Assembly (NCBI GenBank): GCA_016215325.1
Contig: JACRJV010000012.1
Coordinates: forward strand, 1 to 57,881
Reading direction: 5' to 3'
DNA length: 57,881 nucleotides
Source of the DNA: Candidatus Uhrbacteria bacterium
GTDB taxonomy: Bacteria > Patescibacteriota > Patescibacteriia > JACRJV01
Positions 35,981-51,735 of this stretch are shown one piece after another (position 1 is the first letter of the stretch; every line of letters begins with the position of its first letter). The notes under the pieces are model-generated. The model had not been told where the DNA came from. It was given only the letters and a program-made list of their open reading frames with translations, and did no database searches. A program made the position numbers and the translations under genes.

Positions 35981-37447
35981 TTGAAGAAGAGCTTCAACGG
36001 CAACCAGTTCTTGTCTCTCGTCGTCGTCATCCTCGTCGCCATGGTCATCGGCGGCTGCGGAGGAGGCGGGGGCGGAGGCGCCTCGGGAGGAGGCGGGGGC
36101 ACAGCGCTGCCCTCCAAGACGTTCGACGTCACGATCGACGTCACGTCGACGCTCTCCGCGTTCCCGACTTCGACCGCCGTCGCGTACGGGGAATTTCCCG
36201 ACGCGGCGCATCCGGTCAATTACCCGCTCGACCCGTCGCAGTGGACCAGCGTCGAGCGAGTCGACGCTACTCACTTGCGGATCCGCGCCAAGGCCGCCCC
36301 GGGCCGTCACACCTTCAACGTGCTGTTCGGTGCGGCCCCCGGTACGTGGCTGGATCGGATCAATGGGGTCGTCGCGTCGATCGGAAACGTCGCCGTCGAC
36401 TTCGTGGACAACAATTTTGGCAATGGTAGCCGAAGTCTTGTGTTCACGATCAACGACTCCGGGGGGCCGGTCGGCACTGTCATCACTCCGCCCTCGGGCG
36501 GGGGTGTCACCTCCGTGGCGGGCGCTCTCGCGCTTACCATGGGGTTTCAGTGGATCGGTTCCCCGCGGGACAGCAGCACGCCGGTTTTGTACGGTGAGAT
36601 CCCTACCGCCCAGGATCCGCGCTGGCCCGGCTCGGATTCCTCCAGCCGCTATACGGTGCAGCGGCTGGACAATGGCCAGCGGTTCAAGTTCGGCACGACC
36701 GCTGTCCCCGGTCGGCACGAAACCAACTTCCTCGTGGGGCCGTTGTCGGGCAATCTCTTTGGAGATTTGCTCGTCCGGCTCACGCAGGGAATCGCCACCG
36801 TGGGTGGGGTGGTTCCGCAGCTCGTTTCCAACGAGCTCGGCGGTTTCAACTTTGCCTGGTGGTTCACGACCACCGGCGAAGTCGCTCCCGCCCCTGGGCT
36901 ACTCACCGTCTTCGGAGACTCGGTGGATGCGACGGGGCTGATCAGGGTCAAGCTCTACGCCAGCACAATCGCGGGAGCTATCGGGTATCAGTTCCTGATC
37001 GCCACCGGTCAGGACACCGTGGGTCAGACCATCAATACCACCAGCCCGGTGGCGGAGGTTCTGTTGCCGGCATCGCAGCCGGTGAGAGTTAAAGTGGTGG
37101 CGAGCACCACGAACCCTTCGACGGTTGCGCCAGTCCGGGTGGTCGCGTTCCCTGGCATTCCGGTCACCATCGTCGCCCGCTGGGACGCCGACCCCGGTGT
37201 GGTCACCATGCTGGGTGGACTGCCCATCAACGGCGTGTTCAACGCTGCCGGGATTCCCGTGGCGGGCTCGGGTCTCACCCGGACGTTCGTCACTCAAGTC
37301 CCGGTCGGTCAGTTCAGTTGCCAGTTGACGTCGTCGGCCAGCAGGTCGCTGATCCAGGCGACCGTCAACGGGACGACCATCCAGGCCGGCACCACGGGCG
37401 CGTGCTCCTTCTCCGTCCTTCACTCGACGGCCATCCGCGCCCCGTGA
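35981..37447 (+). CDS. Lipoprotein with poly-Gly linker and an internally duplicated ~135-aa beta-rich domain
   Basis: aaaGGAGaatgccTTG start. The lipobox is LVAMVIGGC, followed by GGGGGGGASGGGGG. YGEFPDAAHP..APGRHTFNVLFG (about 36185) is repeated as YGEIPTAQDP..VPGRHETNFLVG (about 36590). GC is about 63%. Confidence 0.6.
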   Translation: MKKSFNGNQFLSLVVVILVAMVIGGCGGGGGGGASGGGGGTALPSKTFDVTIDVTSTLSAFPTSTAVAYGEFPDAAHPVNYPLDPSQWTSVERVDATHLRIRAKAAPGRHTFNVLFGAAPGTWLDRINGVVASIGNVAVDFVDNNFGNGSRSLVFTINDSGGPVGTVITPPSGGGVTSVAGALALTMGFQWIGSPRDSSTPVLYGEIPTAQDPRWPGSDSSSRYTVQRLDNGQRFKFGTTAVPGRHETNFLVGPLSGNLFGDLLVRLTQGIATVGGVVPQLVSNELGGFNFAWWFTTTGEVAPAPGLLTVFGDSVDATGLIRVKLYASTIAGAIGYQFLIATGQDTVGQTINTTSPVAEVLLPASQPVRVKVVASTTNPSTVAPVRVVAFPGIPVTIVARWDADPGVVTMLGGLPINGVFNAAGIPVAGSGLTRTFVTQVPVGQFSCQLTSSASRSLIQATVNGTTIQAGTTGACSFSVLHSTAIRAP

Positions 37448-50470: not shown

Positions 50471-50781
50471 GCCGTTGTAGCTCAGCTGGTAGAGCAACTC
50501 CATGGTGGGGACGCAACCCCTGCCCATCCCGATGGTAACATCGGGATGAATCCCGAATAACGGTTAACGGCCGACACACGGTCAAGACCGTGGCCCGACA
50601 TTCGTCAGGGCCCGAACGACTGACAAGGGGACCCAGTAGTGAAATACGGGGTTAATATACAGTCTAGCCCTCTTATAAGTGTTGTCCCTGCCCGCAATGC
50701 TTTCGCATAGCGATGCAGGTGGGTAAAAAGAGGTGTAAGCGAAGGAGTAGGTCCGCGGTTCAATTCCGCGCAACGGCTCCA
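50471..50781 (+). tRNA. tRNA-Thr (GGT) interrupted by a 235-nt intron in the anticodon loop
   Basis: The exons at 50471-50506 and 50742-50781 join to GCCGTTG-TA-GCTCAGCTGGTAGAGC-A-ACTCC-ATGGTAA-GGAGT-AGGTC-CGCGGTTCAATTCCGCG-CAACGGC-T-CCA, a 76-nt cloverleaf with G1-C72 and C2-G71. This is the only splice choice that gives a 7-nt loop with the 5' exon ending in U and the intron ending in G. Confidence 0.8.
50507..50741 (+). ncRNA. Group-I-like intron (no ORF)
   Basis: Inserted after anticodon position 36, as in known bacterial tRNA group I introns. It has a 10-bp hairpin with a GTAA tetraloop (50525-50548). GACTG (50618-50622) and CAGTC (50660-50664) form a P7-like pair, the latter inside an S-element-like AATATACAGTCTAGCC. 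The terminal nucleotide is G. Confidence 0.6.
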
Positions 50782-50793
50782 GATAATTTGATT

Positions 50794-50880
50794 GGGCGGG
50801 TACCGAAGTGGTCAAACGGGGCACGCTGTAGACGTGCTGGCCTTGCGCCTTCGGGGGTTCGAATCCCTCCCTGCCCACCA
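50794..50880 (+). tRNA. tRNA-Tyr (GTA), long variable arm
   Basis: GGGCGGG...GCACG-CTGTAGA-CGTGC-long variable arm-GGGGGTTCGAATCCCTC-CCTGCCC-A-CCA. Confidence 0.9.
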
Positions 50881-50886
50881 CCCCTT

Positions 50887-51735
50887 ATGATCATCGCGGC
50901 GTTTTGGATACTGCGTATTGGCCTGGCAGCAACGCTCATTTATGCCGGAATCGACATGATGATCCAACCCCAGGTGTGGTTGGGTTTTTTCCCTGCATTT
51001 GCGTTGGCGGCAAGTCCGCTCAAAGAGACTCCCACCGTGATCATGCATGGGATTGCCCATATCGTTCTTGCTGTAGGATTATTGTATCCGAAGACCGTGC
51101 GATGGGCTGCGGTTTTCACAGCCTTGCTGTTGATGGGGGTTCTGATTTTTTCGGGTGATTGGTTTGTCACCTTCCGAGACGTCGGTTTGTTGGCAATTGC
51201 CGTGGCGCTTATTGTCTGGCCGAAATCCGTTGCCGAGCCATCGACGCATAACACGCTGCAAGTGGGCGCCATCTGCCTGCGGCCGACATTTAACTCGTTG
51301 GAAGTGTTGTGTGCGCAGCGGACGAGTGATCAGGTCTATTATCCTTCCCAATGGGATTGCGGGGTGGGACGCGCTCGTATGGACGAAACGCTCGAGCAAG
51401 CGGCGGAACGCAAAATTCGTGAATCCTTTGGAGTCGAATCGCGTGCACTAGCGCCAGTGGCGTCGTTCTCATTTTTTCCCACTGGTCGTAAAGTTACTCA
51501 AGGGGTAAAGTACGTTTGCCTTTTTCAAAAGTATCTTAATGGCAAAGGTGTTGCGCTTGATAAAAAAGAGTTTTCGCAATGGCAATGGCTGCCGATCGAA
51601 CAATTGGATGCCGTTGCCTGGATTCAAGGGCGGGAACGAAGCGCCGCAGACGACGTTCGTTCTGCAATCAGTTATTATAAGGCGATGGGAGAGTTTGATC
51701 GGCGCAACGCCCCCGCTGCTCGGTCGCTCGCGTAA
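50887..51735 (+). CDS. Membrane (DoxX-like) N-domain fused to a Nudix-like hydrolase domain
   Basis: I placed the start at ATG 50887 because the track start 50713 overlaps both tRNAs. Four TM helices are followed by GVGRARMDETLEQAAERKIRESFGV, a partial Nudix box (Gx5Ex7R.U..E.G). Confidence 0.6.
   Translation: MIIAAFWILRIGLAATLIYAGIDMMIQPQVWLGFFPAFALAASPLKETPTVIMHGIAHIVLAVGLLYPKTVRWAAVFTALLLMGVLIFSGDWFVTFRDVGLLAIAVALIVWPKSVAEPSTHNTLQVGAICLRPTFNSLEVLCAQRTSDQVYYPSQWDCGVGRARMDETLEQAAERKIRESFGVESRALAPVASFSFFPTGRKVTQGVKYVCLFQKYLNGKGVALDKKEFSQWQWLPIEQLDAVAWIQGRERSAADDVRSAISYYKAMGEFDRRNAPAARSLA

Follow-up and report, generated by a model that had tools for sequence, protein, structure and literature searches.

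A gene for tRNA-Thr(GGU) on contig JACRJV010000012.1 of a Candidatus Uhrbacteria bacterium (assembly GCA_016215325.1; contig C8), all 57,881 nucleotides of which were analysed and are called the window below, is split by 235 nt, and the question that this locus raises is what the inserted sequence is and whether the cell can still make the tRNA. A first reading of the letters alone, hereafter the original prediction, took the insert for a group I intron. Both the architecture of the insert and covariation among its homologues support that reading, and we hold it very probable that 50507-50741 is a group I intron that interrupts, at the U36/A37 junction, the one tRNA-Thr(GGU) gene found in the genome.

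Joining the two exons (50471-50506 and 50742-50781) yields a canonical 76-nt cloverleaf, which ARAGORN calls tRNA-Thr(ggt) when given the joined sequence. It has a 7-bp acceptor stem, canonical D and T arms, the anticodon stem ACUCC/GGAGU, the anticodon loop A-U-G-G-U-A-A, a discriminator U and an encoded CCA. This product is identical at 75 of 76 positions to the uninterrupted tRNA-Thr(GGU) of a relative (G023), the one difference lying in the T loop, and it is also close to four further uninterrupted tRNA-Thr(GGU) genes in relatives; the 5′ exon shows 100% identity with the 5′ halves of such genes. Because these genes provide empty sites for comparison, the bounds of the insert are exactly 50507-50741, as the original prediction had them, with the U before the insert and the G at its end that it had pointed out. 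A tRNA census of the whole assembly (1.14 Mb in 27 contigs, 92.6% complete; the genomes of relatives all measure 0.4-1.6 Mb) also found Thr(UGU) and Thr(CGU) genes. It turned up no second Thr(GGU) gene in this 92.6%-complete genome, and hence none of the intact copies elsewhere that were named beforehand as a sign of a pseudogene. On contig C27 the same census lists a 'Thr(AGU)' of 98 nt with an intron of 11 nt, a dubious call. ACC is the commonest Thr codon in a crude set of open reading frames (ORFs), and ACC and ACU together account for 46% of Thr codons.

Within the insert, the full canonical order of group I helices is present, including a P3-P7 pseudoknot, a P4-P5-P6 domain and a P3-P8-P7-P9 domain (Table 1). 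The minimum free energy fold reaches -94.3 kcal/mol (z = -4.1), which none of 200 shuffled sequences equals, and the unconstrained fold already gives the P1 extension, P2, P4/P5, P6, P7 around P8, and P9. In the classical group I consensus, known from Tetrahymena, GACUA pairs with AAGAUAUAGUC and the canonical R element reads ...AGACUA.... The insert carries R-like CGAACGACUGACAA and S-like AAUAUACAGUC strings close to that consensus, the last pair of P7 being G-C here as against A-U in the classical form. Most of what had been noticed at first finds a place in the structure: the 10-bp hairpin with a GNRA cap is P2, the GACTG/CAGTC pairing is P7, and the S-like element, AATATACAGTC, is J8/7 followed by the 3′ strand of P7, the canonical form being AAGAUAUAGUC. 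The insert holds no credible ORF, only short shadow ORFs, again as first described. A pairing between an internal guide and the exon, which could not be drawn convincingly at first, does exist as P1: the anticodon GGU pairs with the guide GCC at 50522-50524, U36 forming a wobble pair with G, and a GGGG/CCCC extension continues the helix on the intron side. A P10 helix was looked for by eye; at most a U50521-A37 pair can be drawn, and P10 is treated as absent.

Table 1. Exons, intron elements and neighbouring tRNA gene at the split tRNA-Thr(GGU) locus, in window coordinates
Feature	Position	Strand	Details
5′ exon, tRNA-Thr(GGU) nt 1-36	50471-50506	+	36 nt; anticodon GGU = 50504-50506, exon strand of P1
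Group I intron, without ORF	50507-50741	+	235 nt
3′ exon, tRNA nt 37-76	50742-50781	+	40 nt; CCA encoded
P1	50504-50506 with 50522-50524	+	Anticodon GGU with guide GCC: U36·G50522, G35-C, G34-C
Intron side of P1	50507-50524	+	Extension GGGG 50507-10, loop L1, CCCC 50517-20, bulged U 50521, guide GCC
P2	50525-50548	+	10-bp hairpin, GUAA loop; compensatory changes at 10/10 pairs
P3	50551-50554 with 50627-50630	+	UCCC/GGGG; pseudoknot with P7
J3/4	50555-50559	+	GAAUA
P4	50560-64 with 50587-91	+	ACGGU/ACCGU; encloses J4/5 UAAC, P5 and J5/4 AAG; invariant
P5	50569-50583	+	Hairpin; covaries
P6	50592-50612	+	Hairpin; compensatory changes at 4/4 modelled pairs
J6/7	50613-50617	+	CGAAC
P7	50618-22 with 50660-64	+	GACUG/CAGUC; G50618 = predicted guanosine-binding G-C pair
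J7/3	between P7 5′ strand and P3 3′ strand, within 50613-50630	+	ACAA
P8	50631-50652	+	Hairpin; compensatory changes at 4/4 modelled pairs
J8/7	50653-50659	+	UAAUAUA; with P7 3′ strand CAGUC (50653-50664) = S element
P9.0	50667-68 with 50739-40	+	GC/GC
P9	50669-74 with 50728-33	+	CCUCUU/AAGAGG; covaries by eye
Hairpin inserted in L9	50686-50723	+	38 nt; copy of small repeated element
omega-G	50741	+	Last intron nucleotide
tRNA-Tyr(GUA)	50794-50880	+	Uninterrupted in the window; 12 nt 3′ of tRNA-Thr(GGU)

The insert is not peculiar to this genome. In a BLAST search of 60 relatives, four genomes turned out to have this insert at this position; in most of the rest the gene is intact. A core covariance model was built from five sequences, this intron and its four homologues. 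In its own genome the model has one match, the present copy, whose 144.5 bits place it among the top five. Run on 401 genomes of the class, it found 25 strong copies (100-155 bits) and one cut by a contig end (56 bits); from the phylum, again sampled with 401 genomes, came 26 strong copies (94-155 bits). In either sample the carriers make up about 6% of genomes, spread over many families. An exact core pattern added at least 120 further species. The named carriers are overwhelmingly Patescibacteria of the candidate phyla radiation (CPR), among them Saccharibacteria and Kaiser-, Yanofsky-, Wolfe-, Moran-, Uhr-, Doudna- and Peregrinibacteria; a few metagenome-assembled genomes (MAGs) with a copy are labelled Gammaproteobacteria, Pedobacter, Bdellovibrionales or Oscillospiraceae. 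A cultured member of the Bacteroidota, Niastella populi CCTCC AB 208238, has a 181-nt member in its tRNA-Thr(GGU) (NZ_LWBP01000002.1, L159; 120 bits with the core model).

Altogether 126 loci were examined, of which 119 could be resolved. Distinct introns number 114, of 158-243 nt, and covariation was measured on 95 distinct core sequences. Every one of the 119 resolvable copies sits in tRNA-Thr(GGU) at site 36/37 (U36/A37), with U at position -1 and omega-G. Across the 95 cores, aligned to the model, 95.3% of the cells that should pair do so, compared with 76.6% in column shuffles and at most 40.5% with slid partners. Double-sided changes occur at 26 of 36 pairs, and none of 500 shuffles reaches the observed value for any of five measures. 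P2, P5, P6 and P8 covary heavily, while J4/5 UAA, the GACUG/CAGUC pairing and J8/7 (AAGAUA in most members) are invariant or nearly so. Three elements allow tests free of the bias that comes with fitting an alignment to a model. P3 lies outside the search model; its three core pairs are 100% paired, with changes between CG and UA at all three, and a fourth is U·G, U-A or C-G in most members. In P9.0, also outside the model, the first pair among the 114 introns is G-C in 66, A-U in 41, G·U in 4 and unpaired in 3, and the second is C-G in 58, U-A in 44, U·G in 6 and unpaired in 6. As for P1, the guide GCC is found in all 114 distinct members, and the sequence of the extension varies while its pairing persists, adding 1-7 bp in 108 of them.

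How far standard tools recognize the locus is a separate matter. ARAGORN run without introns and the Rfam tRNA model do not report the split tRNA-Thr(GGU) gene. With intron detection, which the original prediction had proposed as a check, ARAGORN does recover 50471-50781 as a tRNA split by an intron of 235 nt, but the splice is placed 2 nt off and the gene miscalled as Arg(GCG). This tRNA-Arg(GCG), with an intron after nucleotide 34, is ruled out by the identity of the exon to uninterrupted Thr(GGU) genes, and also by the U(-1)/omega-G rule and the covariation of P9.0, which put the splice at 36/37. ARAGORN also reports a 91-nt 'tRNA-Gly(UCC)' at 36793-36883, which the Rfam tRNA model does not support at its gathering threshold and which is probably a false positive.

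Several points weigh against the intron reading. The Rfam group I model, RF00028 (Intron_gpI; gathering threshold 50 bits), gave no match at the locus or in the whole genome at E<=10, although the control genomes were positive, and none at E<=1 on five Thr(GGU) introns (L037, L040, L046, L049 and L055). P3 is only about 4 bp long. P4 and P7 are invariant and so offer no covariation evidence, the invariance of P7 being partly forced for those loci that were fetched with the exact pattern; since the alignment was fitted to the core model, the pairing of the modelled helices is inflated. The genome is incomplete, so that a second Thr(GGU) gene is possible in the missing part, and an insertion in L9, which among the copies inspected is seen in this one only, could in principle impair folding. 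The silence of RF00028 had been named in advance as a sign that would speak against a group I fold. It is overruled by the family model and the covariation, which show the fold in spite of it, and we regard the miss as a limit of that model and not as evidence against the fold. In the RF00028 scan of the five Thr(GGU) introns, the introns of the neighbouring tRNA-Tyr(GUA) and tRNA-Thr(UGU) genes of relatives score 43-57 bits.

From sequence and covariation we infer that the intron is spliced, that it is the catalyst and that it would probably act independently of protein in vivo. tRNA-Thr(GGU) and tRNA-Tyr(GUA) are probably co-transcribed; a promoter scan gave nothing above chance. In the proposed pathway, the Thr-Tyr tRNA precursor would be transcribed and the intron would take up its P1-P9 architecture, the guide GCC pairing with the anticodon GGU so that a U36·G wobble marks the 5′ splice site. 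The G-C pair of P7 would bind a guanosine from outside, which would attack after U36. With omega-G (50741) then placed by P9.0 in that pocket, the 3′-OH released on U36 would attack after omega-G, ligating the exons into mature tRNA-Thr(GGU), with the anticodon stem and not a real P10 holding them together. On this scheme ACC and ACU could be read in the cell only if the intron splices.

Three other accounts have to be set against this one. Many natural group I introns need protein help, and a P3 of about 4 bp with P10 essentially absent would fit an intron that depends on a host or partner protein, maturase-like or chaperone, in vivo. We consider such dependence unlikely, given that no maturase or LAGLIDADG gene lies in the intron or among the neighbouring genes examined, that neither PF14528 nor PF00961 matches anywhere in the genome, and that compact tRNA introns such as that of Azoarcus self-splice (PMC13168695). 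The insert might instead be no intron of this type at all, being either a mobile insertion that does not splice, such as a miniature inverted-repeat transposable element (MITE) or the remnant of an insertion sequence (IS), or an archaeal-type intron spliced by proteins. The chance of this is vanishingly small in our estimate: the silence of RF00028 and the repeated hairpin inside the insert would suit it, yet they stand against a full covarying group I architecture and against the same site, U(-1) and omega-G in all 119 resolved copies. A MITE or IS insertion was ruled out because, apart from the 38-nt hairpin in L9, the insert is single-copy in the genome, and reading the ends revealed no terminal repeats or target duplication. 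Protein-spliced tRNA introns are a feature of archaea and eukaryotes (PMC4090602); no search for a splicing endonuclease was made in this genome.

A dead copy is the remaining possibility, and we judge it very improbable. The L9 insertion or other changes would block splicing, the locus would be a pseudogene, and tRNA-Thr(UGU) would read all four ACN codons by superwobble, as small genomes can do with U34. In favour of this, the L9 insertion was not seen in the other members inspected. Against it, this copy has all of the family's helices and invariant core positions intact and scores among the five best, L9 is a peripheral loop that varies freely across the family, ACC is the Thr codon most used, and the census found no other Thr(GGU) gene.

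How does this intron relate to those already known? The original prediction considered a Thr(GGU) host unusual, recalling four bacterial hosts. This view is outdated: the survey by Williams (2020; bioRxiv 10.1101/2020.01.27.920355), which maps 5292 split bacterial tRNA genes and reports high frequencies in metagenomic 'unnamed phyla', raises the number of tRNA/site types from 4 to 21, including a Thr.5Ug seed, and assigns the four classical bacterial tRNA introns to subgroup IC3. The present intron has the host and site that define the Thr.5Ug type, namely tRNA-Thr, an intron after anticodon-loop position 5, U(-1) and omega-G. The kind is thus already known, as the Thr.5Ug class and as a widespread family, of which this copy is a new member. 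Judging by its title, a preprint of 2025 (Nakagawa et al.) deals with group I introns in the tRNA genes of Patescibacteria; beyond these two works, literature searches brought up no account of introns in the Thr(GGU) genes of CPR bacteria.

Sharing a site need not make the two Thr.5Ug introns one lineage. The Rba53.Thr.5Ug seed has in common with this intron a 5′ exon ending in GGU, the 36/37 site, U(-1) and omega-G; in both, moreover, the guide is UGCC and P2 is capped by a GNRA loop. Its core, however, is of IC3 type (AAAUUCGGGGAAA ... CAAUCCCGAGCCAAG ... GUAGAGACCAGACGG ... GGAUGGUCC), unlike that of the present family (AAUCCCGAAUAACGGU ... AAGACCGUGG ... CGAACGACUGACAAGGG ... AUACAGUCUA). 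A hidden Markov model (HMM) of the family did not match any of five IC3-type seeds (Azoarcus Ile2.5Ug, Sel1.Leu.3Ug, Rba53.Thr.5Ug, Mti5.Thr.3Ug and Wba81.Asp.4Ug). An assignment to IC3, which was considered, is unsupported by this comparison with the Williams seeds, and the core strings differ by eye; as judged by its sequence, the family is not IC3. Since the family HMM misses Rba53.Thr.5Ug along with the other IC3 seeds, two intron lineages appear to use the same site. The same HMM does match the seeds Pgr210.Thr.2Ug (E 5e-4) and Mba143.Tyr.4Ug (E 5e-3), and the core model gives weak matches (E 1e-4 to 5e-8) to the introns that relatives carry in tRNA-Tyr and tRNA-Thr(UGU). Such cross-matches to introns that RF00028 does recognize indicate that the family is a divergent relative of recognized group I introns.

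Those tRNA-Tyr(GUA) and tRNA-Thr(UGU) introns have, by sequence, the closest core. They share with this family the layout ...UG-AA..-P3-(G/A)AUA-ACGGU..AA...AA(U/G)-ACCGUGG..., and they too are compact, ORF-less, about 200 nt long and found in the same bacterial class. They differ in being recognized by RF00028 and in having a 6-bp P3, J6/7 GUAGA and the canonical P7 GACUA/UAGUC, whereas in this family P3 measures about 4 bp, J6/7 is CGAAC, P7 is GACUG/CAGUC and RF00028 gives no score. Several relatives carry such group I introns, of about 190-230 nt, in their own tRNA-Tyr(GUA) and tRNA-Thr(UGU) genes (L046 in G198, 482-766; L049 in G069, 1717-1991; L063-L066). Two of these genomes, G198 and G069, have introns in tRNA-Tyr and in tRNA-Thr(GGU) alike; in the window, tRNA-Tyr and tRNA-Thr(UGU) are uninterrupted.

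The original prediction rightly likened the insertion point to that of the Azoarcus pre-tRNA-Ile(CAU) intron, an IC3 intron designated Ile2.5Ug in the Williams nomenclature. Besides the insertion after nucleotide 36, the two introns have in common their small size, the lack of an ORF and a P1 formed by the three anticodon nucleotides and a 3-nt guide. They differ in host tRNA and in core sequence. Two relatives (G008 and G029) have an 11-nt-receptor-like CUAAG...UA(U/C)G in P8 and a GAAA loop in L2, which suggests the same L2-P8 docking as in Azoarcus; in the copy studied here, L2 is GUAA, the 11-nt receptor is missing from P8 and L9 does not form a tetraloop. The Azoarcus intron has been shown to self-splice, whereas for the intron described here self-splicing is predicted.

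The one departure of this copy from its family lies in L9. At 235 nt it is the third longest of the 114 introns because L9 holds a 38-nt hairpin, which is absent from the other family members inspected by eye. The hairpin belongs to a repeat element of about 35-44 nt, consisting of CTGCCCGCAA, an inner hairpin with a covarying stem (loop ~GCAUAGC) and then GCAGGYGGG. The genome has three copies, at 50686-50723 and 1889-1927 of the window and at 92696-92731 of another contig (G000:C22, minus strand), the last of which is flanked by the direct repeat TCTCAAATCTCAAATCTGC. Of 301 genomes of the class, 18 contain the element, in as many as 7 copies each, and a control with the reversed pattern found none. 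In Rfam it drew only a sub-threshold match to COG2908-RNA (14.9 bits). It may be a miniature mobile element resembling repetitive extragenic palindromic (REP) sequences, or a protein-binding hairpin. As L9 is peripheral and its length and sequence vary freely across the family, the insertion would be expected to be tolerated.

The genes around the intron are housekeeping ones. Upstream lie genes for a D-Ala-D-Ala carboxypeptidase family protein, triose-phosphate isomerase and a tetratricopeptide repeat (TPR) protein; tRNA-Tyr, a DoxX-Nudix protein, tRNA-Thr(UGU) and RibD follow downstream. A homing intron would have an endonuclease ORF within or beside it, and this copy has none, for which reason it is most likely a fixed passenger. 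A listed 340-aa ORF (50713-51735) has its ATG at 50713, inside the intron, and spans both tRNA genes. Translation from 50887, just past tRNA-Tyr, gives 282 aa with weak DoxX/MauE-like matches and a NUDIX domain, and the real start of that ORF is therefore probably near 50887.

The R/S core of the family, CGAACGACUGNCAA...AUACAGUCUA, is also found in 20 viral contigs of IMG/VR (L212-L231). Unlike the bacterial copies, these are not in tRNA genes, ARAGORN finding none; long open reading frames flank them, and in some the intron itself contains an ORF. In two of the contigs (L222 and L231) the whole P2-P9 layout matches the tRNA-Thr family. The intron-internal ORF of two others (L216 and L226) has a motif resembling a helix-turn-helix (HTH; ...ITYSNINAIRSNRSWKY). 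Viral copies and a patchy distribution together fit horizontal spread plus loss. At one further locus (L011; G029:C7, minus strand) the 36-nt 5′ exon, with GGU as its last three nucleotides, recurs unchanged about 200 nt upstream of the intron-bearing tRNA-Thr(GGU); unrelated sequence comes next, and then the complete intron-containing gene. The arrangement resembles a scar left by the integration or recombination of some element within the anticodon loop.

A wider picture can be drawn tentatively, and we think it somewhat less likely to hold as a whole than to fail in some part. The introns may form a structurally distinct, unclassified group I subclass, marked by a P3 of about 4 bp, J6/7 CGAAC and a P7 closed by G-C instead of A-U, that is common to protein-coding genes of phages and to tRNA-Thr(GGU) of Patescibacteria and a few other bacteria, the cultured Niastella populi included. 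This subclass would have colonized site 36/37 independently of the IC3-type intron there, and it would be missed by the Rfam and default ARAGORN scans run here, so that an essential tRNA could go uncalled in about 6% of genomes. In the present copy the intron would itself have been invaded by a second, undescribed miniature hairpin element, a nesting of hairpin within intron within tRNA gene.

Nothing here changes what is known of how group I introns work. In this family one compact group I intron of 158-243 nt, free of ORFs and with a guide that recognizes the anticodon itself, is available in more than 100 natural versions, and because Niastella populi is a named strain with a genome that is not a MAG, splicing is directly testable there. 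For the organism, the sole tRNA for ACC and ACU is one that default ARAGORN, the Rfam tRNA model and the Rfam Intron_gpI model all fail to see. Since such scans miss the gene, carriers could appear to be without tRNA-Thr(GGU), and the same holds for about 6% of the sampled relatives.

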